From Algivirga pacifica (GTDB lineage: Bacteria > Bacteroidota > Bacteroidia > Cytophagales > Flammeovirgaceae), in contig NZ_BAABJX010000017.1 in NCBI RefSeq assembly GCF_039543525.1, positions 117,047-181,046 on the forward strand: 64,000 nucleotides of DNA. The letters run 5' to 3'. The notes beneath the pieces were generated by a model. That model was not told the DNA's origin. It did not search any database and saw only the letters and a program-made list of their open reading frames with translations. Shown piece by piece: positions 1 to 59,418 of this stretch. Numbering within the stretch: the first letter of the stretch is position 1; every line of letters begins with the position of its first letter. The translations under genes were made by a program, and so were the position numbers.

Positions 1-70
1 AATTAATTATTACGTTTTAACTGTATACTTTTTATTGTTTTTAGTTTGTACTATTGTTTTTTATTAAGGG

Positions 71-976: not shown

Positions 977-996
977 AATTCTTATAATAAATACAT

Positions 997-3717: not shown

Positions 3718-3793
3718 GTGTAGGGGCGTAAAATTTAAAGTGATCAGTACTGTTGGAGCATCCTAATTGCTTTAATATATAAATGATTTCAAA

Positions 3794-4717: not shown

Positions 4718-4793
4718 AAGTAATCTTTATTTTGAATAAAGCAGTCTTAATAAGATGTGTTTTTTATAATTAATTTAAACTATAAGATACGTT

Positions 4794-6993: not shown

Positions 6994-7103
6994 GGGTGGC
7001 TTTAATTATCTATGATAATTAGAAAAAGGAGATCATTTTGTGAAAACTGTAGAATATTAAAGGAGATCTTTTATAGGTTATGCTATTAAATTAGAATTTT
7101 TTT

Positions 7104-7928: not shown

Positions 7929-8079
7929 AATTGTTTGCTCTTTGGTGTTAAACACCAGTTATAAATAAAAAAATATAATTGGGCTTGTTCTATATTGGAT
8001 TCTAATTTTATAGTTAGAAGCCAAATCAATATTATATCTTCAGTGTTCTGGATACTTATTAATTAATTTTAGAAATTTC

Positions 8080-8964: not shown

Positions 8965-10100
8965 CGTTAATAGAACCAGTAGGAGGGCATGGAGGAATGA
9001 ACTATTATGACTATGGCCTGGCGAATGGTTTATATCATAATGGAGTAGAGGTATATTATTATACTTGTGATGAGACCGATAAAATCTATGAAGACAAGGT
9101 AAAGACATACCTTTATTATAGAAAAATATATAACAAGTCAATTAATAAGTTTAGAAGGCTATTACTTTTTGTGTTTGGGGCAATAAGATCATTGACTCAT
9201 GCCAAAGTGAATAAGATTAAAACAGCGCATATACACTTGTTTGGGGTTGAACCAATAGATTTTCTCCATATTTTTCTTATTAAGTTATTTGGATTTAAGT
9301 TAACAGCTACGGTTCATGATGTAGAGTCTTTTTATTTGTCTGATAAGGATAAGTGGTATCGTAACAAAGCATTGAATTGGATTGACAAGTTTATTGTTCA
9401 TAATGAGATTTGTAAAAAAGAACTATTAGAATCTACAACTGTAGAGGTAAGTGATATAAGTGTGATTAAGCATGGTAATTACTTACCTTTTGTGGAGCCT
9501 TTACTTTCAAAAGAAGAAGCGGGGAAGCAGCTTGGTATGCCAACAGATAAGATCAACTTACTGTTTTTTGGGCAAATCAAAACGGTGAAAGGGCTTGATG
9601 TTTTATTGAATAGTTTAAAATATCTAAGCGCAGAGGAACGATCAAAAATCAATTTGATTATTGCGGGTAAAGTTTGGAAAGATACGTTTGCAAATTATCA
9701 GCAAATCATTGATGAGAATGATCTTAATGAAGTTTGTATAACTAGAATAGAGTATATTCCTGATGAAGAGGTACATCTTTTTTACAGCCTTGCCGATTTT
9801 GTAGTTCTTCCTTATAAAAAGATCTATCAATCAGGGGTATTATTGATGTCTATGAGTTATCAAAAGCCCGTGATTGTATCCGATCTACCTGCTATGGTTG
9901 ATATTATTAAGGATGAGGAAAATGGATATGTATTCAAAACGAACGATACGCAGTCTTTAGCAGCAACGATTTCTAAGGTGATTGCTAACCCTCAAAGGTC
10001 GGGGGATATTGCCCAAGCTGCAATAGATACGGTATCCAATGAGTTTGATTGGAAATTGATAGGAAAAAAAACCACTGAAGTTTACCATAGTATCCTGTAA
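8940..10100 (+). CDS. Glycosyltransferase family 1 (GT4-type)
   Basis: 386 aa; C-terminal GT-B fold with EX7E-like region (NGYVFKTNDTQS), overlaps upstream gene by 25 nt. Confidence 0.75.
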   Translation: MAERNPRIALIEPVGGHGGMNYYDYGLANGLYHNGVEVYYYTCDETDKIYEDKVKTYLYYRKIYNKSINKFRRLLLFVFGAIRSLTHAKVNKIKTAHIHLFGVEPIDFLHIFLIKLFGFKLTATVHDVESFYLSDKDKWYRNKALNWIDKFIVHNEICKKELLESTTVEVSDISVIKHGNYLPFVEPLLSKEEAGKQLGMPTDKINLLFFGQIKTVKGLDVLLNSLKYLSAEERSKINLIIAGKVWKDTFANYQQIIDENDLNEVCITRIEYIPDEEVHLFYSLADFVVLPYKKIYQSGVLLMSMSYQKPVIVSDLPAMVDIIKDEENGYVFKTNDTQSLAATISKVIANPQRSGDIAQAAIDTVSNEFDWKLIGKKTTEVYHSIL

Positions 10101-10115
10101 GGAGGCTTAAATGTT

Positions 10116-11213
10116 ATGAGAAAAAAAGTTAGTATTATTGGAAGTGTAGGTATTCCGGCTAAGTATGGTGGGTTTGAAACCTTGGTGGAGTATTTGACGA
10201 AAGATAAAATCAATAGTGATATAGAATATCACGTTTTTTGTAGTTCTAAAGCTTATTCGGAGAAACTACCTGTTCATAATAATGCAAAATTGCACTATGT
10301 GAATTTTGAGGCAAATGGAGTATCCAGTATTATATATGATATTATTTCTATAATTAAGGCAAGTTTTTTTTCAGATACCATGCTGATTCTTGGGGTATCT
10401 GGGGCTTTAATTTTGCCAATACTTCGTTTATTTTATAGGGGGAAGATTGTTTGTAATATAGATGGGTTAGAACATCGAAGAGATAAGTGGAGTCCTTTTG
10501 CTAGAAAAATGCTTAAGTTTTTTGAAGGGATTGCCGTTAGAAATTCAGATGTTGTAGTAGCAGATAATAAGGGAATTTATGACTACGTGAAAGAAACGTA
10601 TGCGAGAGAAAGTAGCGTTATTGCTTATGGCGCTGATCATACGTCTTATGTAGAATTACAGGAAGCTACAAAAACGAAATATAAGATTCCGGAGAAATAT
10701 TACTTTTCTGTTTGTAGAATTGAACCTGAAAATAATACACATATTTTATTAGAAGCATTTTCACAAAGGGGAGATGACATTGTATTCGTTGGTAATTGGG
10801 ATAATAGTGAGTATGGTAGAGAATTAAAAGTAAAATATTCCAGCAAACAGAATATTACGTTATTGGACCCTATTTATGATCAGCATATTCTAAATCAACT
10901 TAGAAGTAATTGCTATTGTTATTTACATGGGCATAGTGCCGGGGGAACAAATCCATCTTTGGTGGAGGCAATGTATTTGTCTTTACCTATTATTGCATTC
11001 GATGTGAATTATAATAGATACACTACTTTTGGTAAGGCAATGTATTTTAAAAATGTTTCTGATCTTCATAATGTAATTGATACGTTATCCTTTGATAAAA
11101 TCAAAAGCTGTAGTGCAGATATGCAAGATGTAGCATCGTCTCATTACACTTGGTATAAAATTGCTGAAAAATACGAGGAACAATATGCGTTAGAAGTAAC
11201 TGTAAATCGTTAA
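10116..11213 (+). CDS. Glycosyltransferase (DUF1972 N-terminal domain + GT1 C-terminal domain)
   Basis: N-terminus KVSIIGSVGIPAKYGGFETLVEYL typical of DUF1972-GT1 rhamnosyl/glycosyl transferases. Confidence 0.65.
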   Translation: MRKKVSIIGSVGIPAKYGGFETLVEYLTKDKINSDIEYHVFCSSKAYSEKLPVHNNAKLHYVNFEANGVSSIIYDIISIIKASFFSDTMLILGVSGALILPILRLFYRGKIVCNIDGLEHRRDKWSPFARKMLKFFEGIAVRNSDVVVADNKGIYDYVKETYARESSVIAYGADHTSYVELQEATKTKYKIPEKYYFSVCRIEPENNTHILLEAFSQRGDDIVFVGNWDNSEYGRELKVKYSSKQNITLLDPIYDQHILNQLRSNCYCYLHGHSAGGTNPSLVEAMYLSLPIIAFDVNYNRYTTFGKAMYFKNVSDLHNVIDTLSFDKIKSCSADMQDVASSHYTWYKIAEKYEEQYALEVTVNR

Positions 11214-11237
11214 ATACTTTATTTTTTCAATTGACAT

Positions 11238-11282
11238 AAAAAATCCCGAACCATGTTTCGTACATGGTTCGGGATTTTTTAT
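11238..11282. terminator. Bidirectional rho-independent terminator
   Basis: 14-bp perfect stem ATCCCGAACCATGT/ACATGGTTCGGGAT with TTCG loop, flanked by A-run and T-run; lies between convergent genes. Confidence 0.75.
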
Positions 11283-11304
11283 ATTTCTTACTGTAGACGA
11301 GTAG

Positions 11305-12504
11305 CTACACGATATTCATACTTTTAAAAGTTTCTCCTAGAATTGTATTTGATGGGAATTCTAACCAGTTATCTAGTAGTTCGGCATAAACTCGTCGAAA
11401 ATCAATTTTATATTGAACATCCCCTTTTTCTAAGTTTTCTAAGTCAATAGAAGCGTTATAAATACCCGAGGATTTCAATTTACCACCTAGTAGAAATAAA
11501 CTTCCAGCAGCACCATGGTCAGTACCTTTACTACCATTTTCTTTGACTCTTCTACCAAATTCCGAAAATATCATCACACGGGTACTATTCCATAATCCTG
11601 ATCTTCGCAAATCCTTAACGAAGGATTGTATTCCGTGGTTAAGTTGTTTCAATAGACGTTCTTGTCGTGGAAGTTGGGAGTTATGTGTATCAAATCCGGA
11701 AACTTTTAAATAATAAATTTCTGTATTACATCCTGCAGTAATTAAGTCAGCGGTTTGTTTTAATTGTTTCCCTAAGTTGTCAGAGGGATATTCTTGATGT
11801 GAATGTTTTGTTTTCATTTTCTCCAGAATGTATTCTGAGGAGCTATAGGTATTAGCCAATACTTGATAAAGGTAATCAACCTGCGAATTAGTATGTTCTT
11901 GGTGATGCTGTATTTGTTGTAGGAAATGATCATTAGTTCCTCTGATTAATTTACCACTATTAATTCCGAAACCGGATCGCTTTTGCCCTTGTAATGCTAA
12001 TATGGAACCACCGCTTAAATCAATGGCTTGGTGTGAATATATGTTTTTATTCGTATTGCCTTGAAATTCATCTAAATATTTTCCTAACCAGCCTTCACTG
12101 CTAGATGCTGAGGAAATATTTGCGGTATGCCAGATGTCCATTGATCTAAAGTGAGAGCGGTTGGGATTAGGGTAACCTACTTGGTTAATGATATTCATTT
12201 CTCCTTTATCGAGTAGATCTTGAAAAAAGGAAAGAGAATAGTGTAACCCCAGTTGTTTGTTCAGTTTAAGAACTTTTTGTTCTGCTATAGCTAATGTTGG
12301 ACGGTGTTCATAATAAAGGGAATTATTATAAGGAATAACAGTATTGAGAGAATCATTACCTCCAGAGAGCTGAATAATGACTAATCTTCTATTATTTCCA
12401 TCTAGGTTTAAGGGGGAATAAGCTTGAAGAAATTGTGGTAGAAAAAAAGCCCCTACAGTAGTGATAGCCGACTTTTTTAAAAACTCTCTACGATCATTGT
12501 TCAT
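11305..12504 (-). CDS. DUF1501 family protein (Tat-secreted, sulfatase/phosphatase-like fold)
   Basis: Twin-arginine signal RREFLKKSAITTVGAFF; length and composition match DUF1501 partners of DUF1800. Confidence 0.75.
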   Translation of the reverse strand: MNNDRREFLKKSAITTVGAFFLPQFLQAYSPLNLDGNNRRLVIIQLSGGNDSLNTVIPYNNSLYYEHRPTLAIAEQKVLKLNKQLGLHYSLSFFQDLLDKGEMNIINQVGYPNPNRSHFRSMDIWHTANISSASSSEGWLGKYLDEFQGNTNKNIYSHQAIDLSGGSILALQGQKRSGFGINSGKLIRGTNDHFLQQIQHHQEHTNSQVDYLYQVLANTYSSSEYILEKMKTKHSHQEYPSDNLGKQLKQTADLITAGCNTEIYYLKVSGFDTHNSQLPRQERLLKQLNHGIQSFVKDLRRSGLWNSTRVMIFSEFGRRVKENGSKGTDHGAAGSLFLLGGKLKSSGIYNASIDLENLEKGDVQYKIDFRRVYAELLDNWLEFPSNTILGETFKSMNIV

Positions 12505-15627: not shown

Positions 15628-15640
15628 TAGCTTTAAAGTA

Positions 15641-15675
15641 AGCCCTACCTCCCATCTCGGTAGGGCTTTTTTTGT
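15641..15675 (+). terminator. Rho-independent terminator
   Basis: AGCCCTACC…GGTAGGGCT stem followed by TTTTTTTG. Confidence 0.7.
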
Positions 15676-15697
15676 GAATTGTTCAGACCTATTATTT

Positions 15698-15895
15698 CTA
15701 CAGGAAGTAATAGGATTTTTTGCTTCTGGAAAAGCCTATGGGTTTCTTTATGGTTTCTTCCACTTCTTTGAAAATGGCGAATAATTCTCTAGTTGAGACA
15801 TTTAATTTCTCACCTAGTTCTTGAGGGGTGCCTGTACTTTGGCTTTCGATTAGGTGTTGAAGTAGGATAACTTTACTTTTTGCTGCTTTGGTCAT
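15698..15895 (-). CDS. Small stand-alone winged-HTH protein, subtype A
   Basis: 65 aa; conserved L..LI......TGTP..L..KLN.S.REL…KP.G.SR.KKSYYFL shared with four neighbouring paralogs; resembles HTH_11/DeoR-N type. Confidence 0.6.
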   Translation of the reverse strand: MTKAAKSKVILLQHLIESQSTGTPQELGEKLNVSTRELFAIFKEVEETIKKPIGFSRSKKSYYFL

Positions 15896-16076
15896 TCTTT
15901 ATTGATTTTAATGGTGGTTAATATTGTATGTTTAGGATTGATTATGTCGCTGTCTACGGAAAATGATCAGGCTCACCTGTTATGATTTATCGTTTATAAT
16001 CGATGCGACAGCGCTAAGCTTAATGACTATAGTGCGGGCTGATTTATCCGTAGACCTTTTTGGTGACATTTACTGC

Positions 16077-16277
16077 CTATAGGAAGTAGTAGGATTTCTT
16101 CGTTCTGGAATATCCTACAGGTTTACCTAGGTGTGTTTCCATCTCCTCGAAAATAAAACAGAGCTCTCGTAATGAGATGTTGAGCTTTTTTGCCAGTGTC
16201 TCAGGGGTACCTGTGTTCTGGTTTTGGATTAGATATTGTAGTTGATCAACATAGGTATTATTTGCTGCTGGTGTCAT
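16077..16277 (-). CDS. Small stand-alone winged-HTH protein, subtype A
   Basis: 66 aa paralog, ends KKSYYFL. Confidence 0.6.
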   Translation of the reverse strand: MTPAANNTYVDQLQYLIQNQNTGTPETLAKKLNISLRELCFIFEEMETHLGKPVGYSRTKKSYYFL

Positions 16278-16424
16278 GTTGTTTTGGGTTTAAATAGTGG
16301 TTGATAGAATGAGATAAATTGATGTAATCACGAGATATTTTATTTATCGGTTATTACTTATCGTTTAGGGTTAAAATAACTGTTTGATCCGATCCTCGAT
16401 CTTTCATGATTAGCTTATGGCGTT

Positions 16425-16661
16425 TTATTTATTGATGGGAATCGAAATGCTATCCCCTTCCTGAAAGAAATAGTAGGTTTGTCGAAATCGGGAATATCGT
16501 ATATCAGCCTGCATAGTGGATCTGATTTCAGAAATAAGTTGGAAAAGGTGTCGTGTGGAGATACCCATCTTTTCAGCACATTCCTGAGGGGTTCCACTGC
16601 TTTTGGTTCGAATAAGATAATCCAAGTGATTGATGCGATAAACGTATTTCGTCAGGGACAT
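16425..16661 (-). CDS. Small stand-alone winged-HTH protein, subtype B
   Basis: 78 aa; MSLTKYVYRINHLDYLIRTKSSGTPQE…YYFFQEGDSISIPINK; subtype with DIRY.R…TYYFF.EGDSI tail. Confidence 0.6.
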   Translation of the reverse strand: MSLTKYVYRINHLDYLIRTKSSGTPQECAEKMGISTRHLFQLISEIRSTMQADIRYSRFRQTYYFFQEGDSISIPINK

Positions 16662-16735
16662 TTGTTTTCTTTTTAAGGGTTCAAGTAAAGATTAATTGTT
16701 CTAAGTAGATCTATTATGGACTTTGTGTTACTTCT

Positions 16736-17005
16736 TTATAGGAAATAATAGGATCTCTTCTTTTTGGAATATCCAATGTTCGTCGTCCAAATAGCTTGAG
16801 CGTCTTGCATACGCTTGAATAACTCCCCTCCTGAGATATTGAGCTTTTTGGCAAACTCCGTAGGGCTACCGGTACATTGCTGTTGAATAAGTTGTTGCAT
16901 TTTGTTGACTACCTCTACATAGCTGGCAAGTGGCATAATATGTTTTTTAAAGGTTGGTGGATAAATATGGTTAGCTATTTCCAATACCCCTAAGGCTTGT
17001 TTCAT
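16736..17005 (-). CDS. Small stand-alone winged-HTH protein, subtype A
   Basis: 89-aa ORF (true start may be internal Met giving ~66 aa); ends KKRSYYFL; 4-bp start/stop overlap with upstream paralog. Confidence 0.55.
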   Translation of the reverse strand: MKQALGVLEIANHIYPPTFKKHIMPLASYVEVVNKMQQLIQQQCTGSPTEFAKKLNISGGELFKRMQDAQAIWTTNIGYSKKKRSYYFL

Positions 17006-17301
17006 TTTTGATTATCACTTAGCGGTGAAATAGTATTTTTAACGGGGAACTGCTTTTTCGGTTTTAGCTTCTCTACAGGAACTGCTATACTATCGCCCTC
17101 TCGAAAGAAGTAATAGGTTTTACCCTGACGGCAGTAGCGAATATCGGTGTTGAACGTAGACTGTACTTCTTCCAAAAATTCGTAGAGGTGGCGTTCAGAA
17201 ATTTGAACTTCTTGGGCAAAAGCCTTAGGAGGTCCCGTTCTCTTAGCTTTTAGTAGGCTGTCCATTCGGTTTAATCGTTCGATATAAGTCTCTAATGACA
17301 T
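17002..17301 (-). CDS. Small stand-alone winged-HTH protein, subtype B
   Basis: 99 aa; MSLETYIERLNRMDSLLKAKRTGPP…YYFFREGDSIAVPVEK; first gene of the array. Confidence 0.6.
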   Translation of the reverse strand: MSLETYIERLNRMDSLLKAKRTGPPKAFAQEVQISERHLYEFLEEVQSTFNTDIRYCRQGKTYYFFREGDSIAVPVEKLKPKKQFPVKNTISPLSDNQK

Positions 17302-18363
17302 AAGATAGCTGTTTAAGGATTTATAAAGTATTTGCGTTGAAAAGGCAGAAACGAAGGAGATAACAAGTTGTTGATCTGTGTTTTTAATGGTTAAGGTAAA
17401 TGATTAATTGTTATCAGTTGATCAACAATGCGCGTTGTTCTTCTTGTTGGCTATGTTATAAAACTATTCTTTGTTTAAGGTTATTTACAAATGCTTGTTC
17501 AGTATTTTCCTACAAGGAGAAAACAATTACCGTGAACAAAATGATGCTGTGGGATTTTTGTGATGATGTGAACTTGGAAATGCTGCTGACACAAATAGTG
17601 CAGTAAGGGTAAAGAATAAGGATGTTTGTGTAGTATTGAGATGTAAGAAAGCCCTAAGTAGTTATGCGTAAACATGGCAGGAAATGGGCTATCTCTAATG
17701 CTTTAATACGTGAAGAATATGATTATAATTTCCTTGTGATTTTACTGTTAAAGTACCCCTCCATTAATTCATTGTAGTATCTCAGATACTTTACAATAGA
17801 AATGTGAGTATAAAAGCACAGTATCAAGGAAGGTAATATTAGTCGTTTGAAGCCTTTTTGCTGAGGTATTTTTTGGAGTGAATAATATGTCGAAAAATAA
17901 GGTCTTCGATCATAGTATTTATGATGAATATAGAGAAGAGTATATAGTGAATGTACTTACAGCCATAGTTTATATAGACTAGTTGTTTACAGTGTTATGG
18001 ATTGATTTACCTTGATTTCAGAATTGATTACGTAAAATCTTACATATGAAATAAGGAAGTGCTCCACTTTTTTGAAGGATATTTTTGTGGCTGTCTTGGT
18101 CGTTCTTTTAGGATAGGGGGTATAGTACAAGAAAATCTTGTATTATTAGTACCTTTAGTTAAAAGGCAATAAGTGTTTTCTATATAGACATCGGACCGGA
18201 CTATAAAAATATCATTAGAGTTTATCACGGTTAGTTGTCTATAAGTAGGAAAAAGCGATGAACTGGTTCAAGAGTTCAAATTCCGAACGAGGTACGAGTA
18301 AGGAATTGCTCTTGGACCAAGCGGTTTACTACCTCGGTTAAGGTTTACCGTACTACTTTTGAA

Positions 18364-18509
18364 CTAGTGGACTAAACGTTAAATAAACTGTTAGTTTACT
18401 GCTGTTTAGCTCTAAGAGCGTTTCGCCTTGCTCGTGCCTCGCAGGCTACACTGAACTCTTAGAGCAGATGTCTTTTTTGTATAAGGAAACTTAGCAATTA
18501 GTCCACTAG
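18364..18509 (+). other. Candidate structured RNA element (nested long-range stems + T-run)
   Basis: 12-bp perfect inverted repeat CTAGTGGACTAA (18364-18375) / TTAGTCCACTAG (18498-18509) enclosing a 10-bp stem GCTCTAAGAG (18409-18418) / CTCTTAGAGC (18456-18465) followed by GATGTCTTTTTTG; lies in a 1.2-kb ORF-free region. Confidence 0.2.
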
Positions 18510-18521
18510 GGATGTAGATAT

Positions 18522-33068: not shown

Positions 33069-33295
33069 GTTGAATCGTTGAATTGTTTAATGATAACTGG
33101 TCGTAGGCTGATAACTGGTCGTAGCGTCCACGCTGATAACTGGTCGTAGGCTCCAGCCTACGACCCACCAGCGATTTCACGGAGGCTCCAGCCTCCAGTT
33201 TCACATTACTGGTCTTTGCGTCCTCGCAAAGACCAAACCATCAATTGAGCGTCCACGCTCAAGAATGCTACCATTCTACCAATAAAACACATCGC
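33069..33295. repeat. Composite intergenic repeat (GTTGAATCGTTGAAT arm, 3x GATAACTGGTCGTAG, 2x GCGTCCACGCT, 10-bp palindrome GGTCTTTGCG/CGCAAAGACC)
   Basis: Direct and inverted repeats visible in sequence; shares the 15-mer arm with MITE copies elsewhere in window. Confidence 0.6.
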
Positions 33296-44250: not shown

Positions 44251-46407
44251 ATGCAATTTTGGATCAACACCAGAACACTAAGCATCATTACAATCTTATT
44301 GATGACTTTTACAAGTTGTGTCAAAGAACAAGAAATGCCTCTTGTTCAAGTACAGGAGAAGGTAAGTCTTGTTACCAAACGACATGACCGACCAACTGTA
44401 GAGCAAGAAACTCCACCATTAGCAAATACAACTCGTCCAAAGACTAGTGATCTTTCCTCAAATGCCCGTACAGCTTTGGGAGGAAACAATGCGCTAGGAG
44501 TATGGCTATGGTATATTGAAGGGACAGGGTATTCTTCTCATGCGCAATTAGCCGATCAACTAGCTTCTATGGGAGTCAATAGAATTTATGTAAAGGTAGG
44601 AGACGGAACCAATCAATGGGCAGAAGCTACCAATACAAACTTGGTGCAAACCTATAAAGCCAGAGGTATAGAGACATGGGCTTGGGGGTATAATTATCCA
44701 GGGAACGTAGAGGCTCAAGCAGACATCGTTTATCAGGCAGCTAAAACGGGGTATGAAGGATATGTGACCGATATAGAGATTGAGTTTGATGGGAAGTCTA
44801 CAGAACTACATGCCATTTTGGGAGAGTTTAGGGAGGCTATCAGTCAGGCGGTAACCGATGGACATACGACTAATGACTTTAAGCTATACTGTACTTCCTG
44901 GGGTAACCCCGTGGATCATGGTATGCGAGTGGATATCATCGATCAATATGTGGATGCTCATATGCCGCAGACTTACCTGGAGGTTTGGGGAAGTTCATAT
45001 ATGTCTAATGCGACTTATTGGGTAAACTACGGTACGCAGGAGTATAGAGATCAGGGCTGTGTTAAACCTATTCACCATATTGTAAGTAACGAATATGATA
45101 ACATTACGGCGGCTCAGATGAATGAGTTTATTGCTGCTTCAGGGGCGGAAACCTCTATTTGGAGAATACCGGGGGGAGAGTCTCCGTTAAGTATCTGGAA
45201 TACTTTGGAGCAGTTAAATTGGCAACAGGATATGGGGTATGAGTCTGGAGCAGGATCAGGGGCTGGAACACCGACCGATTATGATGAGCACTGGGCAAGT
45301 GTTGAAATTAGCTATATGATCGATAATGGGTATATGTCTGGATATGGAGACGGTTCCTTTAAACCTGATAACACTTTGACAAGAGCAGAATTTGCGAGTA
45401 TGATTGTAGCAACACTTAATCCTGCTCAAAAACCAGAATATGCCAGCAGAAGTTTTAATGATATCAGTGGACATTGGGCAGAAGCTAAAATATTGCAAGC
45501 CGCAAGAGCAGGCTATCTTTCGGGGTATGCGGATGGTACTTTCAGGCCTAACGATCAAATCACCCGTGAGCAACTGTTTGTATCGCTAGCAGGAAATGAA
45601 AATATAGTAGCAGGTTGTGAGGCGTTATTGGATGAGTATACGGACAAAGGGAGTATATCTTCTTGGGCCAAAGGAGGTGTAGCAGATGCTACCAACAATA
45701 AATTAGTGGCTAATTACCCTACAAAAACAAGCCTATATCCGATGGAGGCAGCTTACAGGGGAGAGGCCGTAACCGCCTTGTATCAGTTAATGGTATTAGA
45801 AGGAAATGCTCCGGCATATACCAATGCTTATACGGTAGAATCAACAATTACATGTGCTGGAGGTGGCGGTAGTTCAGCAGGGTATATTGAAGGAGTGCCC
45901 TATTTCTATCAGTTGAATAACAGTGTTAACCCTTCTGGGTCTTGCCAAAATACGGGTATGGCTATGGTATTACGTTACTATGGAGCTAATGTGACACCTG
46001 ATGAGATATCCAACTATTATGGGACAAGTCAGGCACAAACTGTATCTGGTTTTGAAACAGTGTTTAATTCTGAAGCGGCTTATTTTGGTTTGAATGTGAG
46101 GGACCAGGGAACAACAACGGGGACCATACAGCAATTGCAACAATTGGTGGCAGAAGGAAAACCTGTCGTAGCTCACGGATATACGACAGGGTATGGACAC
46201 TTGATTGTATTCTTAGGATTTGACGGAGAATATTATACCGTACACGACCCTTACGGAAAATGGAATCAGGTGCCGTACAGCTCCGGCTATACCAATACAT
46301 CAACAGCGGGAAAACTGACCCGTTACCATAAGGATGCTATCCGAGATGCGTTTGCGCCTGATGGGTACGTATGGCTACATGAGATAGTCTTTACGCAAGG
46401 CAATTAA
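44251..46407 (+). CDS. Multidomain lipoprotein: N-terminal TIM-barrel glycoside-hydrolase-like domain, three SLH-like repeats, C-terminal C39-like cysteine peptidase domain
   Basis: Lipobox MTFTSC; SLH-like motifs (HWASVEISYMIDNGYMSGYGDGSFKPDNTLTRAEFASMIV; HWAEAKILQAARAGYLSGYADGTFRPNDQITREQLF); C-terminal GSCQNTGMAMVLRYYG … GYGHLIVFLG Cys/His pair. Confidence 0.55.
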   Translation: MQFWINTRTLSIITILLMTFTSCVKEQEMPLVQVQEKVSLVTKRHDRPTVEQETPPLANTTRPKTSDLSSNARTALGGNNALGVWLWYIEGTGYSSHAQLADQLASMGVNRIYVKVGDGTNQWAEATNTNLVQTYKARGIETWAWGYNYPGNVEAQADIVYQAAKTGYEGYVTDIEIEFDGKSTELHAILGEFREAISQAVTDGHTTNDFKLYCTSWGNPVDHGMRVDIIDQYVDAHMPQTYLEVWGSSYMSNATYWVNYGTQEYRDQGCVKPIHHIVSNEYDNITAAQMNEFIAASGAETSIWRIPGGESPLSIWNTLEQLNWQQDMGYESGAGSGAGTPTDYDEHWASVEISYMIDNGYMSGYGDGSFKPDNTLTRAEFASMIVATLNPAQKPEYASRSFNDISGHWAEAKILQAARAGYLSGYADGTFRPNDQITREQLFVSLAGNENIVAGCEALLDEYTDKGSISSWAKGGVADATNNKLVANYPTKTSLYPMEAAYRGEAVTALYQLMVLEGNAPAYTNAYTVESTITCAGGGGSSAGYIEGVPYFYQLNNSVNPSGSCQNTGMAMVLRYYGANVTPDEISNYYGTSQAQTVSGFETVFNSEAAYFGLNVRDQGTTTGTIQQLQQLVAEGKPVVAHGYTTGYGHLIVFLGFDGEYYTVHDPYGKWNQVPYSSGYTNTSTAGKLTRYHKDAIRDAFAPDGYVWLHEIVFTQGN

Positions 46408-46418
46408 GCTTATTCGTA

Positions 46419-46557
46419 ATGTTGAATCGTTGAATCGTTGAATTAAGCTTTGCTTGTTGATTCGAGTTGAACCGTTGATTGGCCTCAATAAATATCAATC
46501 AACGGTTCAACTCGATTCAACTTATCGAAGATAAAATTCAACGATTCAACGATTCAA
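46419..46557. mobile_element. MITE-like core element with perfect 23-bp TIR GTTGAATCGTTGAATCGTTGAAT
   Basis: Left end 46419-46441 and right end 46535-46557 are exact reverse complements; internal sequence matches core of copies at 38299 and 59118. Confidence 0.6.
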
Positions 46558-46766
46558 CTAAACATCCCCAGATTAGTGTGATTCCGCTTTTTTTACAGAA
46601 ACATGTCTTTTTCTTTGCTGACTTTATTATTTTAGGCGGCAGAAATAAAAAATGCTACTAGAGACCTATTAAGTACAATACTGGTCTTTTGGAGATAAGT
46701 TCTTCCTGCTCAGAGGAAGAGCTTTTACTTTAAAATATTTTTTTTACCGGAAGGTCACAAAACTGA

Positions 46767-47240
46767 TTGAACACAATGAGTATTACTGTAAGAAGCTTTG
46801 AGGAATTTAAACAATATGAAGGGCAGGAATTAGGCGTTTCAGAGTATTTACAAATCACACAGGAGCAGATCAATAAATTTGCGGATGCAACCCTGGATGA
46901 TCAGTGGATACACACGCAGCCGGAGAGAGCGGAGAAAGAAAGTGCCTTCGGAACAACCATTGCACATGGATACTTGACCTTGTCATTGGTGCCTCACCTA
47001 TGGAACCAAATCTTGCAGGCAGAGAACCTAAAGATGATGGTGAACTATGGCGTAGAGAAGCTACGTTTTGCACAGCCTGTAAAGGTAAATGACCGTGTAA
47101 GACTGAAAGCAAGCTTGCATTCTATTGCTAACTTGAGAGGTGTAGTAAAAATTGAGGTAGATGTGAAATTGGAAATCGAAGGACAAAGAAAACCAGCGTA
47201 CTCTGGTATCCTTGTACTACTTTACCATTTCAACGACTAA
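46767..47240 (+). CDS. MaoC-like (R)-specific enoyl-CoA hydratase / hotdog-fold dehydratase
   Basis: 157 aa; DQWIHTQPERAEKESAFGTTIAHGYLTLSL matches MaoC dehydratase motif. Confidence 0.65.
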   Translation: MNTMSITVRSFEEFKQYEGQELGVSEYLQITQEQINKFADATLDDQWIHTQPERAEKESAFGTTIAHGYLTLSLVPHLWNQILQAENLKMMVNYGVEKLRFAQPVKVNDRVRLKASLHSIANLRGVVKIEVDVKLEIEGQRKPAYSGILVLLYHFND

Positions 47241-47261: not shown

Positions 47262-47380
47262 ATGGGCTAGCCCACGGCACCGCCGTAAATTATAAATAGC
47301 CCACGGCAACGAAATGAAATTCAAATAGCCCACGGCAATGAAATGTAAATAGCCCACGGCAACGCCGTGGGTCACCAAAA
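47262..47380. repeat. Tandem repeat, 4 copies of TAGCCCACGGCAA(C/T) at 24-29-bp spacing, ending in hairpin CCCACGGCAACGCCGTGGG
   Basis: Copies at 47268, 47297, 47326, 47350; between convergent gene ends. Confidence 0.6.
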
Positions 47381-48376
47381 ATTGATCACTCGCTCCACCA
47401 ACCAAAAGGATGCCATAATGCCAATCCCATAGGCAGGAACCTTTTGTAGATAAACGGGCCAGTGCTTGTAAAGAAGCAGTAACTTGATCCCTGCCAGCAC
47501 CACAATGACAAATGCGATTTGTCCCAGTTCTACACCTATATTAAAAAAGGCTAGTGCTAAAGGAATCGCTGATTGAGGTACTCCCACTTCCGATAGTGCC
47601 CCCGCAAATCCAAATCCATGCAATAGTCCAAAAGAAAAAGCAACGAGCCATGGCTTTCGGCTACTGAGGGTTGATTTTCCTTCCTTATTTTTTAGAATTT
47701 CTACGGCCAGAAAAACAATACTTAATGCAATTGTAGCTTCTACCGGAGGTCCTGGAATACTCACCCATCCCAAGGTGGCTAGACTTAGCGTGATGCTATG
47801 GGCAATCGTAAAGGCTGTAATGGTTTTTAGAATTTTACTGAATCCTTTCGTAATAATCATTAAAGCCAAGACAAATAAGAGATGGTCAATGCCCTCCCAA
47901 ATATGTTCTATACCAAGTATACTGTAGTTGTAAATCACCTCCTTACTATTTGGAGAGGAGGGTAATAGGGCACTTGTTTGCTTGGGATTAAGTAGGAGTG
48001 TTATGTTTTCCCCATTGAGAAAAGTAGCATTGACAAGCACATCGACCATGGTTTTGTCCAACTGATCAATATGTAGTGTGGTGCCCATTAAAGGAGTGCT
48101 TCCTTTCAGTTCATAGGTATAGAGTAAAGCACCTTCAATAGCCTGAGGCACAGCAGAGGCTTGCAGTTGAAAAGAAGGTGCAAAAACAGGTTGTAAACGA
48201 AGCACCATATCTCCTTTTCGGGGGACTTTCCACATCACTTTATAGGTACTATCATTACTTTGAGTGATATGCAAATAGGCAGGGCGAAGTTCATGGGCAT
48301 CGCTTAGAGATATAGAAGTAATCAGTAAAAGGATTATCAATGAGAAAAGGTGAAGAAGGGGGGAGGTCTGTTTCAT
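47372..48376 (-). CDS. HupE/UreJ-family membrane protein with N-terminal periplasmic domain
   Basis: Signal peptide, C-terminal 6-TM region with GLLHGFGFAGALSE motif typical of HupE/UreJ_2. Confidence 0.5.
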   Translation of the reverse strand: MKQTSPLLHLFSLIILLLITSISLSDAHELRPAYLHITQSNDSTYKVMWKVPRKGDMVLRLQPVFAPSFQLQASAVPQAIEGALLYTYELKGSTPLMGTTLHIDQLDKTMVDVLVNATFLNGENITLLLNPKQTSALLPSSPNSKEVIYNYSILGIEHIWEGIDHLLFVLALMIITKGFSKILKTITAFTIAHSITLSLATLGWVSIPGPPVEATIALSIVFLAVEILKNKEGKSTLSSRKPWLVAFSFGLLHGFGFAGALSEVGVPQSAIPLALAFFNIGVELGQIAFVIVVLAGIKLLLLYKHWPVYLQKVPAYGIGIMASFWLVERVINFW

Positions 48377-48421
48377 ATTGTGTTTATCGGTTATTGCTTA
48401 ACGGTTACCGTTTAAATAATT

Positions 48422-48523
48422 TGCTCACTGCTCACTGCTCACTGCTCACTGCTCACTGCTCACTGCTCACTGCTCACTGCTCACTGCTCACTGCTCACTG
48501 CTCACTGCTCACTGCTCACTGCT
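48422..48523. repeat. Heptanucleotide tandem repeat (CTCACTG)n, ~14.5 copies
   Basis: Perfect 7-nt periodicity across 102 nt; begins ~45 nt upstream of ATG of 47372..48376 and overlaps last 7 codons/stop of 48502..49356. Confidence 0.9.
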
Positions 48524-49356
48524 GAGTAAAGTTCCGTTTCTATTTTTATCTTATAATTATTTTTCATTTGCTCATACATCGCTTCACGGTTTTGTTGAGC
48601 CCGATTATACTCATAGTCTCTTTGCAAGACTTTTTTGACTTGCTCAAAGGGAAGGTCTTTTGGAGGCGTTTTTTGGGTAAGATAGAGGATATGTGTTCCA
48701 TAGGCAGATTGTACTGGTCCATACCACTGTTCCGTAGGCAGTTTTGAAAGTGCTTGATGAAGCGATCCTCCGAAAGTATTCTCGACCTGTTGTTTATTTT
48801 GTTCTTGAATAAAGAAAGGAAGCGCACGCAGACTGCCATAGGCATGCAGAACTTCAGGAGAAGCATCTGGCATATTACGCAATAGGCGTTTTGCTTCTCG
48901 CATAGGCTCTTTGTACCGATCTTCGGAGAAAACCACTTGATAAAAGCTATAGGTTTCAGGACTTTGATAGCTGCTTTGGTTTGAGGTATAATACCCTTTC
49001 AAGGTTTCATCCGTTACTGGATCGGATAAAGTAGTAAGGTCATCAGATAGGAATTCCATTTTTTGAGCCAATCGGCTTTTGATCATCTCATCATTATGGT
49101 CCAGGTTCATCCGCAAAGCTTCCCTGTAAAGGATTTCCTGTCGAATATATTTTTGAACGATGCCATTGAGTTCTTCTTGAGTAGGAGGACGTTGCCATTT
49201 GAGTTGCCACAAAGAAATCAGATGGTTGAGGTGATTGTCGTCAATCACGATTTGCTTCTCTTCAGTATGCGTTTCTTGTGTTCTATCATAAACGAAAAAT
49301 AATACTGCCCCTATAAGTAAGAAGTGGAATAGGGGTTCTTTCATCAGTTTTATCAT
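48502..49356 (-). CDS. Periplasmic parvulin-like peptidyl-prolyl isomerase (PpiC/SurA-type)
   Basis: Signal/TM anchor; C-terminal rotamase-like segment SAYGTHILYLTQK (cf. GYHII motif). Confidence 0.45.
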   Translation of the reverse strand: MIKLMKEPLFHFLLIGAVLFFVYDRTQETHTEEKQIVIDDNHLNHLISLWQLKWQRPPTQEELNGIVQKYIRQEILYREALRMNLDHNDEMIKSRLAQKMEFLSDDLTTLSDPVTDETLKGYYTSNQSSYQSPETYSFYQVVFSEDRYKEPMREAKRLLRNMPDASPEVLHAYGSLRALPFFIQEQNKQQVENTFGGSLHQALSKLPTEQWYGPVQSAYGTHILYLTQKTPPKDLPFEQVKKVLQRDYEYNRAQQNREAMYEQMKNNYKIKIETELYSAVSSEQ

Positions 49357-49424
49357 AAGTAGAAGTCTTTGGGTTGGATGCTGCTTGCTAATTCACGATA
49401 ATTTATTTGTTCATATTGTTTAAT

Positions 49425-49560
49425 TACACTTCGTGTGTTCATGTTGTTTAGTTGAGTTGAATAGAGCTCTGATAAGATCATTTTTCAACTAAACAACATG
49501 AACGAGCGAAGCTCAACTAAACAATATGAACAAAAGTGCTCAACCTATTGAAGGTGAAAT
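49425..49560. repeat. Diverged member of the GTTGAA-arm repeat family
   Basis: Inverted repeats GTTCATGTTGTTTAGTTGAG / CTCAACTAAACAA(C/T)ATGAAC; shares AACGAGCGAAGCTCAA and GAAGGTGAAATTC with copies at 59118 and 38299. Confidence 0.45.
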
Positions 49561-49593: not shown

Positions 49594-51513
49594 TCAAGGG
49601 GTATACCAGATTGGGCTACTATAAGCACGTTCCTGCCCGCTAGTTTCAGCTTCTTTCGGTAAGTCTATACCATAACGAAAGGCATCATAGACAATCCATC
49701 GAGGAGTAGGAATTTCCAGCACCCTTACGTAGTAGAAAGCTTTAAGGGATGGATCAAAGTCAGGGTCTTTCCATACCGTGGCTAGTTCAGAAGCACCGAT
49801 AGTGTTGGTCCAGGTGGCACTTTTGAGGTCAACGGTATTACCTACAGCAGGAAGCTTTCCTTTTTTATCGGGTTTGCGGTCGCCAGACCATACCACATCA
49901 TAGACTTTTTCCTGTGTATTTCCTTGCTTGTCTACCCACCCTTTAATGACTTGAATACGGTCCAGGTTAGCACCTATAGGGTCCTTAAGGGCATAGATCA
50001 TAAAGGTCGGACTTCCTTTCTGACCCTTAGAACGTAGGTCCCCTCCCATAGGAACACCTTTTTGGTAGCCAGCAAAGGCAGGGTTACGGCTATTGATATC
50101 ATTTTCGTTAAAGTCCCATCCTCCAAAGAAACGAAGGATCATTCTTGGACCTGTCGTGGCATATACCTCTTTGCGGGCAAGGGCATCCCAGATCGCTTCC
50201 CGGGTATTTTCTTTGGCCCATACGCCGGTATAGCCGGAAGATACGAGTTCATACCCCTCGTAAACCCCTATATCGGTTTTGACAAAAGGATGGTGCATAC
50301 GTTTAGGAGAAGGTTCTGCACTGGTAGCCTTTCCAAAGAAGTTGTCTTCTTCTGCTGTTGATAGGGAGGTATGACTATCGGTGGAGCCCACCGATCCAAA
50401 TTTATAAGGATTCACGCCAAGCTTTTTCTCCAACAGCAAACCATTCTTCAAGGCTTCTCTTGCGTATTCTCCAGCAAGCATCTCCTCTGTTTTCTTCTGG
50501 GTTAAATCCAGGTTGCCGACATCCCAGGTTTCATAATCTGCAAACTCATCAGCAGGCGATAGAATAGGGTGGGTTTCTCCATCCCCCTTGATCTGCGTCC
50601 ACTCATATAGAGGCTCCCATTTTGCTCTTAAGCGAACATAATTTTCATCGATTTTCTTTCCGGTATATTGCTCGTCCATGGGAAACATGAGACCATTAGA
50701 AAGGTTTCCGTTATGTGCAATAGCAAAAGCAGAGCCCCCCGTTGTTTTCTCATAGTTCTCTAGCCAGGCATAAAGGTCTAAGGGATCTGTAGAACCTACA
50801 GGAGGTTGCGTGACCATAGGCATCACCTGTTTAGCACGTTCCGCTCCATCCCGAAGCAATACGTTACGGTGAAGGTTATTTCCTTTGACCAGAGAAGTCC
50901 ACTCAAAACCAATAATCGTGGTGAATTTTCCAGGGTCGTTAAATTCCTCAGCCGTTTTGATCACCCGATTCCAGACAGAGGCATAGACCTTGGAGCCAGG
51001 AGAGTATTCCTTGACTAGTCCTTCTGGTAAGGTTCCTTGGGAGAAATTAGTAATTAGGTCAATGGCGGCATCGGCGGCATTATCTCCTCCCGCTTGCAGT
51101 CCCTCATACCATTTTTTTCCTTCTGGATAGGCCAATACATTGGAGGCTCCTTTAGCAATATCTTCCGAAAATCCCATCATATCGGAGTGATCTGCAATCA
51201 CAAGCCAATCCAAAGGTCTGGATAATCGAACGGGTTGATTGGTAGAGGCAACCACCTCTTCCCCTCTGGCAAATCGGAATGCTTCCGCTAGTCCCAAGGT
51301 ATTGCCAAAGAGTCCGGCATCGGCAGATAGACGGGTATGCAGGTGGGTGTCTCCCCAATAAACTTTGTCAGAGAAGTTACGGGAAGCATAAGGGGAGTAG
51401 GATTTTCCCGGATACATGCCGGACAAAGACTCCTTGCTCGGAGTGATTTGTGCGTTTAATGGAAGTATACACCCTAAGAGGAATATACTTAACAGCGATA
51501 AGGGTTTGTTCAT
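49594..51513 (-). CDS. DUF3604 family secreted protein
   Basis: Signal peptide then [17 protein letters not shown], the hallmark N-terminal metal-binding motif of DUF3604. Confidence 0.75.
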
Positions 51514-53113: not shown

Positions 53114-55165
53114 ATGAAGAGCACTTTTAAAATTCTTACCTTTTTTCTATTATTTTTCTCTGTTACACAAGCTTTTGCACAAACAAAATGGTTATACGAC
53201 GGTGCTTTTCGTACCAAGGAAGAACGTCTTTTGGCAATGGGTCTTGCGGGTATTGTCAACCGGGATTCCTCCCAACTTTATCTTCAGAATGTCAACGAGA
53301 CCTGGAGCTATACCCGAACGGATGAAGAGTGGGCAAAGCTATATGCGGCAGATGGTATTGAGTTTATCACAACAAATGATATTAATGCATTAGTGATTGC
53401 ATTTAAGGAGCAGCTCAATGGAGTGATTACCTATGACTCCTTGCAGGTTGCCTCTAATTTTGAGGGGCAGCAATTTCTGTGGCAAGGAGAGTTTGCAGGG
53501 ATGCTTGGAGGATTGACAGACCGGCTTCCAATGACAAAGGAAAGAGCCTTAGCCCTTGATTTTATCCTGACGGATTCTGTAGAAGTAACAGACTATCGTC
53601 AGTCCCTCGCTACTATACAATTTCCTGCCCGTTTGGAACTTGAAGCACATGACTGGAACAATACCTCCCTCACGTCCATGGAGCGTTATATTTTGCTTTT
53701 GCAAGATGGTGTGAATAGTTTACTGCCACGGAGTAATCCTAAGAAATTCTATATACGAGAGTTAACCGATTATACGGTCAAAGAGCAAATGTTTCAGGTG
53801 AATCTTGGAGGAACTTCGTCACTATACTTCGATAGCTTACCAGAAGAGAAGGCAACGATTATTGAGGATATTCTAAGGTATATGAGGCAGGAGAATAAAG
53901 GGCAGATCTTTCATATCTATGGATGGATGCGACCAGAACCTTTGATCCAGTGGTTTTCCGCTTATGGAGGGAGTTTTCATGAGACATTATTATCCAATAT
54001 GTCCTGGCATACTTCTTATAAGGTAGATCAACCGCTTCCTGAACGAAAAGCCAATCAGTTCGACCGCGATTCGCTGTATCTGGAAGAGAAGCATTATGTA
54101 CTGATGATTGGTTCGGAAGGAGATGCCGGAAACTGGACCTATGGGTTGCAGGCTGGTGCATGGCTGTCACAGGAAAGAGGAAATGTACCTATTGGCTGGG
54201 GCTTCAACCTACATTTATTACAGCAAGCACCTTTTATCGCCCACCATTACCTTTCTTCTGCTACGGAGCAAGATGGCTTTTTGGCGGTGACTACACCTCT
54301 TGGGTATACTTATCCCGATCTTTTTCCAGAAGAAGTACTGGATAATGCCATTCTCGAAAGCAAAGCCTTGATGGATACCTTTGATATAGCACAGCTCTAT
54401 GCCTATAAGCACTACAATGGCAAAGGAGTCTCTGACTACCGCAACATTACGATTGACAATAGCTTTAACTTTAATAAACTTGGGGCTTTCAATAAGGCCA
54501 TAGGTTCAGAGCTTACGTTCCTTTTTGATCCAAAGCTGCCTACCCAAACCACTACGATCAGAGAAGAACACCTACTCTTCAACCATGTGGATGATGGGAC
54601 TTTCTATGGGGATATGAATAATACCTATACGGTGGCTGATGATATCATCGATAGGGTTGCTAAGAAAACGAAACCTTCGTTTACCCTAGTTGGTTATCAA
54701 CGTCTCCGAAAAGATAATTACCTAAACAGAACAGCCCCTGAGAATGTGGATATCTCCCTAAAACGCCTTAAGAAAATCATCAACCTAGTAGAAGAAGATG
54801 AAGCGTATGGAAAAGAAATTATCTTTGTAACTCCTGAGAAATTTGCCAACCTTCTTCAGCAAAGCAAGGGCATTATTCCTCCCAACTATAAAGAATCTCC
54901 TGTTCCCGTCCATGTACAAACTCCTGAAGTTGCCTTTTCTGTTTATCCCAATCCAGCCAAGGAGTATATTATGGTGAAGGGCGAATTTATGGAAAAGAAT
55001 GCGACCATAGAGGTGATGAATATCTATGGGAAACAACTCTTAAAGCAGGGGCTTCAGGGAAATAAATCGTTGAGAATAAATACGTCGGATTGGCCTAAAG
55101 GAACGTACTTGCTGCGTTATCAAAACGGGCAGCGCTATGGGGTTAAGAAAGTGATTGTTGTTTAA
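53114..55165 (+). CDS. GxGYxYP-family putative glycoside hydrolase with T9SS C-terminal sorting domain
   Basis: Signal peptide; internal TPLGYTYPD motif; C-terminal ~80 aa (VYPNPAKEYIMVKG…YLLRYQNGQRYGVKKVIVV) typical T9SS CTD. Confidence 0.5.
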   Translation: MKSTFKILTFFLLFFSVTQAFAQTKWLYDGAFRTKEERLLAMGLAGIVNRDSSQLYLQNVNETWSYTRTDEEWAKLYAADGIEFITTNDINALVIAFKEQLNGVITYDSLQVASNFEGQQFLWQGEFAGMLGGLTDRLPMTKERALALDFILTDSVEVTDYRQSLATIQFPARLELEAHDWNNTSLTSMERYILLLQDGVNSLLPRSNPKKFYIRELTDYTVKEQMFQVNLGGTSSLYFDSLPEEKATIIEDILRYMRQENKGQIFHIYGWMRPEPLIQWFSAYGGSFHETLLSNMSWHTSYKVDQPLPERKANQFDRDSLYLEEKHYVLMIGSEGDAGNWTYGLQAGAWLSQERGNVPIGWGFNLHLLQQAPFIAHHYLSSATEQDGFLAVTTPLGYTYPDLFPEEVLDNAILESKALMDTFDIAQLYAYKHYNGKGVSDYRNITIDNSFNFNKLGAFNKAIGSELTFLFDPKLPTQTTTIREEHLLFNHVDDGTFYGDMNNTYTVADDIIDRVAKKTKPSFTLVGYQRLRKDNYLNRTAPENVDISLKRLKKIINLVEEDEAYGKEIIFVTPEKFANLLQQSKGIIPPNYKESPVPVHVQTPEVAFSVYPNPAKEYIMVKGEFMEKNATIEVMNIYGKQLLKQGLQGNKSLRINTSDWPKGTYLLRYQNGQRYGVKKVIVV

Positions 55166-55255
55166 TTATGTGGCCTATTTATAAAAATCCATACGGAGGT
55201 AATATCATTTCCTTTGCGGAGGAGCGGTGCTTTCGGATGCTTTTAAGTAATTAAC

Positions 55256-55536
55256 GTTGAATAAATAATCGTCATAAATTCTTTTCCCAACTCCGCCTAG
55301 GACTAATTAAGTTTGAATATTTAAGCGTCATAAATGTTTCCCTCAACTCCGCCTAGGGCTAAAGCCCCAGGCTCTTTTAGAATTGCCACGTTGTGGCGAT
55401 CTATAACCAACGTATATTATTTGTTAGACAGAAAAACAGTAGTATAGATCACCGCATAGCGGTATTTCAAACAGAGACTGGGGTTTCAACCCTAGGCGGG
55501 GATGGAGATAACTATTGTGTCGGTTATTTATTCAAC
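55256..55536. mobile_element. MITE-like element, second subfamily (same TIRs, different body; duplicated 5' end)
   Basis: Left TIRs GTTGAATAAATAATCGTCATAAAT (55256) and GTTTGAATATTTAAGCGTCATAAATG (55311); right end GTGTCGGTTATTTATTCAAC (55517-55536, identical 18-mer at 59321); subterminal inverted repeats CCGCCTAGGGCTAAAGCCCC / GGGGTTTCAACCCTAGGCGG. Confidence 0.55.
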
Positions 55537-57207: not shown

Positions 57208-57322
57208 GTATACGTTAGTTTATCAGTTATAGTTTATCACTTATCGGTTATAGCTTTACTTGGATACGTTTAAAGAAAAAAAAGAAACGATAAGCAATAA
57301 CCGATAAGCGATAAACATACGT

Positions 57323-59080: not shown

Positions 59081-59117
59081 AGAAGTAGTTGTTCTTATCT
59101 ATCCATCTATTAAGTTT

Positions 59118-59333
59118 GAATATTTATCCGTCACACTACCAAATCGCTTTGTTGAACCGTTGAATCGTTGAATTAAGCTTCGCTCGTTGATTCGAGTTGA
59201 ACTGTTGATTGATAGTTATATGTCCCCATACAACGAATCAACTCGAATCAACGAGCGAAGCTCAATTCAACTCTCCGAAGGAGAAATTCAACGATTCAAC
59301 AGAGCTGGTTAGTAGTATGTCGGTTATTTATTC
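59118..59333. mobile_element. MITE-like element, copy 2 (TIR GAATATTTATCCGTCACACTAC / GAATAAATAACCGACATACTAC)
   Basis: Same architecture as copy at 38299..38501, including GTTGAA(C/T)CGTTGAATCGTTGAAT arm and CGAAGGAGAAATTCAACGATTCAAC. Confidence 0.6.
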
Positions 59334-59418
59334 AACTTTATTTTATGGATAGATACTGTTTAATTATTAGTTTCAAGTTTCTTGAATTCGGTTGATAATT
59401 CAACTCGAGTCAACCTGA

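Follow-up and report, generated by a model that had tools for sequence, protein, structure and literature searches.

The window analyzed here, a 64-kb stretch of the genome of the marine bacterium Algivirga pacifica (Bacteroidota, Cytophagales, Flammeovirgaceae), holds a trio of minus-strand genes that encode, from upstream to downstream, a DUF3604 protein (49594-51513; Pfam PF12228, E 1e-247), a 284-aa PPIC-type (parvulin-like, Rotamase_2) peptidyl-prolyl isomerase (PPIase; 48502-49356; PF13145, E 5.9e-15) and a 334-aa membrane protein of the HupE_UreJ_2 family with an N-terminal signal-like segment (HupE; 47372-48376; PF13795, E 1.4e-48). An earlier note on this DNA had called the latter two genes as PPIase and HupE/UreJ-like, and both calls are supported by the Pfam matches and by like annotation in the public A. 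pacifica record. The HupE protein is 100% identical to the A. pacifica HupE/UreJ family protein P0001, its start codon fits the N-termini of six orthologs, and its closest homologs are 62-64% identical (Mangrovivirga, Flammeovirgaceae KN852). The start of the PPIase differs between GenBank and RefSeq (284 aa from the ATG at 49356 vs. 280 aa from an ATG 12 nt downstream; 49345-49356), and the longer form is favored by the N-termini of the orthologs (MKKLLKEP...).

At the junction of the PPIase and HupE genes lies a perfect heptanucleotide array (48422-48523), read directly from the sequence as 14.6 copies of CTCACTG on the plus strand, or (CAGTGAG)n on the coding (minus) strand. TRF reports period 7, 100% matches, 0 indels and a score of 204, which makes it by far the strongest array in the window and the sole long perfect one. 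When up to two mismatches were allowed, a 14-mer of two units gave 14 matches in the window, 13 of them inside the array, against 0.29 expected from shuffles. The tract is therefore a perfect SSR of sufficient length to slip, and its head-to-tail 7-nt units extend far above chance length, as in the long SSRs and STRRs of other bacteria, whose units measure 5-11 nt. Long perfect SSR tracts are prone to slipped-strand length change; the copy number given here is that of one assembly of A. pacifica, and exact-protein look-ups for HupE, P0001 and the PPIase gave no further contig.

On the coding strand, the PPIase stop inside the array is separated from the HupE ATG (48376-48374) by a further 80 nt of repeat and a 45-nt spacer, for a PPIase-HupE junction of +125 nt. 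The first 22 nt of the array on the mRNA (48523-48502) thus encode the C-terminal residues of the PPIase and its stop, and the other 80 nt are intercistronic. The two genes are co-oriented and the array extends from 19 nt ahead of the PPIase stop to 45 nt short of the HupE start, a location of the STRR type. On these points the earlier note was accurate, as it had described 14-15 perfect copies, about 45 nt from the ATG of the HupE/UreJ-like gene, that overlap the last codons and the stop of the PPIase gene (TGA, 48504-48502).

The array-encoded end of the PPIase

The PPIase ORF runs 19 nt into the array, so that the repeat contains one base of a codon, then six complete codons (AVSSEQ) and the stop; the 3' end of the gene reads ...TAC TCA GCA GTG AGC AGT GAG CAG TGA. 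The resulting C-terminus, ...ELYS-AVSSEQ*, is identical in the public annotations GAA4826952.1 and WP_345369658.1, and is approximately 6-7 residues shorter than those of relatives. In an alignment with six orthologs, homology ends at an invariant leucine, Leu276. Past this residue the orthologs carry approximately 14-15 poorly conserved residues, whereas the Algivirga tail is unrelated to them and shorter, its last six residues being array-encoded. Since homology stops at Leu276 and the tail is encoded by the repeat, the alignment indicates that the array and the heptamer-like spacer took the place of both the native PPIase tail and the native junction. We also looked 3' of the array for a remnant of the ancestral tail, but the 45-nt spacer, read by eye in three frames, is unlike the tails of the orthologs.

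Every frame of (CAGTGAG)n contains a TGA within 21 nt, because 7 and 3 are coprime and the heptamer contains TGA. The earlier note had concluded from this that the PPIase product is insensitive to copy number, and reading the frames on the coding strand confirmed that this is the case while at least three units remain. However, its further view that the arrangement is a design tolerant of slippage does not hold, as such tolerance is automatic for any 7-nt unit with a stop codon and has already been described for TAACTGA repeats (PMC4679880). With stops in all three frames, those repeats can overlap an upstream ORF only at its extreme 3' end (PMC4679880). On the opposite strand, the array forms part of a plus-strand ORF (48340-48525) of LTAHCSL repeats, for which a coding role was rejected: it is antisense to the HupE start, and its exact sequence is absent from the protein collection.

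A gene pair that is tight in relatives

The trio DUF3604 - Rotamase_2 - HupE_UreJ_2 is present in both Bacteroidota and Proteobacteria, and in relatives the DUF3604 gene commonly lies directly 5' of the PPIase-HupE pair. A contig scan, which gave proteobacterial and other relatives at 34-40% identity, was used for synteny. In all 13 relatives examined, the PPIase and HupE genes either overlap by 1-4 nt or lie 2-17 nt apart. The eight Bacteroidota loci, which include two from Mangrovivirga, one each from Echinicola, Mangrovimonas and Muricauda, a Cyclobacteriaceae MAG and a Logan contig with an identical HupE protein, have junctions of +16, +17, -1, -4, -4, -4, -4 and +2 nt, and the five proteobacterial loci, with ORFs called in the present analysis and confirmed by Pfam, have junctions of -4 or -1 nt. 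The +125 nt of A. pacifica is found in the window alone among these loci, and in this comparison the array is specific to the Algivirga lineage.

The overlapping or nearly abutting junctions in 13 relatives make the pair look like a conserved bicistron, one that is probably translationally coupled. If so, HupE is most likely transcribed from 5' of the PPIase gene, and the array would lie inside the transcript and outside the promoter. The earlier note had proposed that changes in copy number alter the geometry between a promoter and the HupE start, but this mechanism finds no support in junctions that are 17 nt or less in 13/13 relatives and that place the tract between cistrons. Nor was a promoter motif found on the coding strand. 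Crude consensus scans, among them a TAnnTTTG/TTG scan, detected neither the Bacteroidetes -7 motif TAnnTTTG (at least 5/6) in 48377-48640 nor a sigma-70-like site near the array. By synteny and these scans, the array, which is outside the HupE ORF and leaves the PPIase stop independent of copy number, does not have the location of a contingency locus, where a tract within an ORF or within or beside a core promoter alters expression with each unit gained or lost, although a consensus scan leaves room for an atypical promoter.

We also examined possible roles of the array through RNA or DNA structure. Neither the array RNA nor either DNA strand folds more stably than shuffled sequences (z-scores -0.52, -0.69 and +3.0), and the plus strand of the array is unusually unstructured. 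Rfam at its gathering threshold gave 0 matches across the whole 64 kb window; a riboswitch or other known RNA at the locus was dismissed, as the only matches were sub-threshold 'miRNA-like' ones from long hairpins elsewhere. We then rebuilt the mRNA with 0-30 units and calculated the free energy needed to open the HupE start region from position -18 to +12. The predicted accessibility of the start is flat, with opening at 1.6-2.6 kcal/mol over 0-30 copies, and in this model copy number would be without effect on expression via RNA structure.

These results bear on the reading of the array as a contingency locus or rheostat, in which slippage would alter HupE expression through an unrecognized promoter or through the length of the intercistronic or 5' untranslated RNA, in the manner of hmw1A/hmw2A. 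A long perfect tract does lie 45 nt from the HupE start codon, and only the downstream gene would be affected, with the PPIase product independent of copy number. There is also a precedent in hmw1A, where a 7-bp SSR in the 5' UTR of the P2 transcript lowers expression as it lengthens (PMC8262952). However, the conserved overlapping bicistron argues for transcription from 5' of the PPIase gene, the consensus scan gave no Bacteroidetes -7 motif near the array, and start-site accessibility is predicted to be unaffected by copy number. Furthermore, the array is the sole long SSR in 64 kb, and HupE is an inner-membrane protein whose gene belongs to a trio of housekeeping appearance in a free-living marine bacterium, rather than a typical surface or restriction-modification target. 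We therefore regard a rheostat as improbable. As to the phase switch of the earlier note, the genuine, perfect and long heptanucleotide SSR between these two genes stands, whereas the promoter spacing, the slippage-tolerant design and an effect on expression through RNA structure are not supported.

Several other features of the trio were observed. Tandem or nearby DUF3604 paralogs, two or three in number, lie beside the Rotamase_2-HupE_UreJ_2 pair in several relatives (among L012, L133, L138 and L139). Its conservation also in MAGs of Alpha- and Gammaproteobacteria suggests that the trio is a functional module. In A. pacifica, the gap that separates DUF3604 from the PPIase gene is filled by a 50-nt inverted repeat (49406-49534; 86% complementary, 29-nt loop) made up of GTTCAT(A/G)TTGTTTA-like 14-mers, which may terminate or process the DUF3604 transcript. 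In relatives this gap is occupied by a 275-aa ORF or an opposite-strand Omp85-like gene, or the two genes are directly adjacent.

TAA-phased heptamer runs

Most of the 45-nt spacer between the array and HupE is formed by a second, degenerate heptamer run on the minus strand (48380-48414; TAAACGG TAACCGT TAAGCAA TAACCGA TAAACAC), in which TAA recurs every 7 nt and after which come AAT and the HupE ATG, leaving a gap of 3 nt. TRF detects the spacer repeat with a period of 14 at 48382-48415. The run contains the 13-nt palindrome AACGGTAACCGTT (48400-48412), and a small hairpin is predicted within it. The 11-mer ATAACCGATAA, which occurs in this run and is common to TAA runs, has 9 matches in the window vs. 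1.66 expected.

TAA-phased runs of at least four units occur four times in the window vs. 0.14 expected, and they are specific to period 7, as the other periods among 4-12 give 0-1 runs. One of them (57216-57250, minus strand; TAACCGA TAAGTGA TAAACTA TAACTGA TAAACTA) ends 8 nt before the ATG (57207) of a DUF5009 gene, which has SusC and SusD ahead of it on the same strand. This run alone contains an exact TAACTGA unit; there is none in 48380-48414. The DUF5009 run and a further one (57291-57318, plus strand) are inverted copies of each other, and the last (16340-16367, minus strand) has no obvious start codon adjoining. Within the 64 kb, therefore, two of the four TAA runs lie directly 5' of an ATG, that of HupE_UreJ_2 at 3 nt and that of DUF5009 at 8 nt. 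Both the TAA run and the perfect array at the HupE gene carry a coding-strand stop (TAA or TGA) in every frame. From these runs we conclude that TAACTGA-like leader heptamers occur in a further genus of Cytophagales.

The inverted runs near the DUF5009 gene, at 57232-57316, after the SusD-like stop (57323) and before the DUF5009 start (57207), have arms of 25 nt that are 92% complementary and 35 nt apart, and the intercistronic RNA could therefore form a long hairpin. We considered and set aside a unit-for-unit derivation of the perfect array from the TAA run beside it. The best match between units is 5/7 (TGAGCAG vs. TAAGCAA) and out of phase by 1 nt, a likeness that is suggestive only and lacks statistical meaning.

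Other features of the window

Short tandem arrays of the octamer GTTGAATC, of 2.9 copies each, lie downstream of genes at 46421-46558, 59096-59355 and 33069-33091. Those at 46421-46558 and 59096-59355 are inverted pairs that form long near-perfect hairpins with sub-threshold Rfam 'miRNA precursor' matches, and the arrays look like a REP/MITE-like family of intergenic elements. A tandem repeat of AATGAAATGCAAATAGCCCACGGC (47293-47364; period 24/29, 2.1-2.7 copies) occupies the convergent gap between a MaoC-like dehydratase gene (46767-47240, plus strand) and the HupE_UreJ_2 stop (47372). A 56-nt tandem repeat (55248-55362; 2.1 copies, 83% identical) is found downstream of a gene for a GxGYxYP/T9SS-tail protein (53114-55165), and SusC/SusD-like and T9SS-tail proteins, which agree with an origin in Bacteroidota, are encoded elsewhere in the window.

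The gene at 44251-46407 (plus strand) encodes a 718-aa protein with two SLH (S-layer homology) domains and a C39-like/papain-like peptidase domain; SLH domains seem unusual in a Bacteroidota protein. The first part of the window (1-12000) has a GC content of 0.28-0.34 vs. 0.38-0.46 in the rest and a run of same-strand ORFs, and it may be a horizontally acquired or polysaccharide-type gene cluster. A stretch of approximately 2.9 kb (15628-18521), which holds the TAA-phased run at 16340-16367, is without an ORF of at least 100 aa, a tRNA or an Rfam match.

CAGTGAG arrays in other genomes

Four copies of the unit, (CTCACTG)4, were found in at least 120 metagenome contigs. Some of these contigs may be eukaryotic; those that were checked carry bacterial genes. 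Among the matches listed, GC content ranges from 0.34 to 0.70, with a median of 5 copies and a longest array of 23. Of the 75 listed arrays with enough flank, 19 are entered directly by a sense ORF of at least 100 codons and 8 by an antisense ORF, a mild trend only, as these are raw ORFs and some contigs are possibly eukaryotic. Several contigs pair (CAGTGAG)n with (TAACTGA)6-11 or (TAAGCAG)n arrays.

One contig, L033, holds a mixed array of 13.9 units upstream of an acylase gene (CAGTAAA x3, CAGTAAG x3, AAGTAAG x1, CAGTGAG x4, CAGTAAT x1, CAGTGAA x1 and a partial CAGTAAA), so that CAGTAAG and CAGTGAG units stand in phase in one array. The acylase shares 75-78% identity with those of Eudoraea, Maribacter and Muricauda, and the contig therefore derives from a marine member of the Flavobacteriaceae. 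In a 78%-identical relative, L140, the flanking genes are shared and the repeat is absent. Mixed and co-occurring arrays of this kind indicate that, by sequence comparison, CAGTGAG is one variant in a fast-turnover family of heptamer arrays found in bacteria that include marine Bacteroidota.

The existence of comparable arrays in many independent assemblies also argues against an assembly artefact, that is, a true locus without the array or with a very different number of units. Short-read assemblies often mis-size tandem repeats, and Elizabethkingia contigs often end within heptamer repeat regions (PMC4679880). However, the Algivirga tract spans just 102 nt between unique flanks, is situated in mid-contig on a 209,882-bp sequence that carries GAA4826947.1 and GAA4826952.1, and is bordered on both sides by sequence that is collinear with the conserved gene pair. 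An artefact thus appears highly improbable.

Bacteroidota largely do without Shine-Dalgarno-led initiation. By analogy with the TAACTGA repeats, for which binding of S1, Csp or CsrA-like proteins has been proposed (PMC4679880), the array and the TAA run together could be a leader, a multivalent ssRNA platform for a post-transcriptional factor of this kind that would set translation of the downstream cistron. The excess of TAA-phased runs over expectation is consistent with this, as is the position of two of them just before ATGs, one with an exact TAACTGA unit. In Flexibacter litoralis, also of the Cytophagales, 12 of 14 TAACTGA sets lie 1-43 nt upstream of a start codon (PMC4679880). In metagenomes, (CAGTGAG)n arrays co-occur or merge with TAACTGA, TAAGCAG or CAGTAAG arrays, and TGAGCAG is one or two transitions from TAAGCAA/TAAGCAG. 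Against a leader system, the unit of the array is not TAACTGA, the array is 1 nt out of phase with the TAA run, and the 5/7 likeness of the units is statistically meaningless. Moreover, the 14.6 perfect copies resemble slippage rather than a conserved site, the relatives do without any leader, and a binding factor has been shown for none of these repeats, the original system included. To our knowledge, the function proposed for TAACTGA-type repeats has never been tested. On balance, we consider such a leader system unlikely.

A broader proposal is that A. pacifica uses heptamer direct repeats, both the TAA-phased runs and the expandable (CAGTGAG)n, as a cis-regulatory layer, with the array tuning HupE_UreJ_2 relative to the PPIase in 7-nt steps. 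This we hold to be decidedly doubtful. If true, it would extend contingency-type regulation and the hypothetical heptamer network of Beggiatoaceae and cyanobacteria to an operon of a free-living marine Bacteroidota species.

A probable tolerated microsatellite

The array is a real, perfect and lineage-specific microsatellite that enlarges the intercistronic junction and supplies the PPIase stop. The interpretation that we favor, and think reasonably probable, is that it is a young heptanucleotide microsatellite, tolerated as a hypermutable spacer, and not an ON/OFF switch. Replication slippage where the PPIase ORF ends, in the junction of a coupled bicistron, would have expanded it and would keep its units homogeneous. 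Judging from synteny, it would be transcribed within the PPIase-HupE operon mRNA. The array separates the cistrons by 125 nt vs. -4 to +17 nt in relatives, so HupE would have to be initiated independently, presumably on the A/T-rich, unstructured heptamer leader just 5' of its ATG. From the general behavior of SSRs, the length of the array would be expected to drift in 7-nt steps, and an origin and homogenization by slippage suggest that its length is probably polymorphic. A change in copy number is predicted to leave the PPIase product the same and to have a nil or weakly graded effect on HupE.

There are counter-points to a tolerated microsatellite. The perfect identity of 14.6 units, which implies either very recent expansion or continuing homogenization, also fits a selected contingency tract. 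The broken junction, being tight in 13/13 relatives, must on the evidence of synteny have altered HupE expression somehow, and in hmw1A, the 7-bp example studied best, the SSR in the 5' UTR does reduce expression with length (PMC8262952).

A mere tolerated microsatellite would be of little significance. The locus is a clean example of a stop-containing heptamer that expands at the end of an ORF and parts a gene pair that is tight (-4 to +17 nt) across two phyla, and the array could serve as a strain-typing marker. It would carry greater weight if copy number or the TAA-phased leaders affect translation of the downstream cistron. In this regard the locus is a compact testable case, with one operon, two adjacent heptamer arrays and relatives that have neither.

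Comparison with known repeat systems

The (ATCTTTC)n tracts of hmw1A/hmw2A in non-typeable Haemophilus influenzae resemble the Algivirga array in their 7-bp unit and in copy number, which is comparable at approximately 13-24 copies (PMC8262952, PMC2424069). They lie upstream of the regulated ORF, in 5' untranslated RNA, and their effect is graded and not a frameshift ON/OFF (PMC8262952, PMC2424069). However, the hmw tract is flanked by and overlaps two mapped promoters (P2 -10, P1 -35), whereas the CAGTGAG array is intercistronic by synteny and consensus scans revealed no promoter-like elements flanking it. In addition, hmw codes for a surface adhesin in a host-adapted pathogen, and for its tract both length variation and an effect on expression have been demonstrated.

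TAACTGA direct repeats have been described in marine Beggiatoaceae, Cyanobacteria and five Bacteroidetes (MacGregor 2015, PMC4679880). The Algivirga repeats share with them a forward orientation upstream of a start and stops in all frames, and both the run beside the array (TAACCGA etc.) and the DUF5009 run with its exact TAACTGA match the TAACTGA-type pattern. The perfect array departs from that pattern, as its unit is CAGTGAG and it lies 45 nt from the ATG; by unit it is not a TAACTGA repeat.

Among long SSRs, heptamers form the most abundant class (PMC4679880). Long arrays lie alongside other heptamer repeats in intergenic regions of Gramella forsetii and Aequorivita sublithincola, and close relatives that have the same gene neighborhood lack them (PMC4679880). 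Heptamer arrays are also known near the 3' end of an upstream ORF and within operons, as in pecE-pecF of Anabaena (PMC4692102, Rehm 2015). Compared with this class (Mrazek et al. 2007, via PMC4679880/PMC4692102; cyanobacterial STRR; the GGGAATC/GGGGATT repeats of Xanthomonas/Nostoc), the CAGTGAG array differs from its known members in that the unit is not G4-forming, the host belongs to the Cytophagales, and the array overruns and re-terminates the upstream ORF and breaks a junction that is tight in 13/13 relatives. Members of the class have the same 7-nt unit length in long head-to-tail arrays, lie like the CAGTGAG array between co-oriented genes and much closer to where the upstream ORF stops than to the following start, vary in length and presence between relatives, and include an operon location (pecE-pecF). 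By its unit length, its perfection and extent, and its position, the Algivirga array is a member of the known class of heptanucleotide long SSRs.
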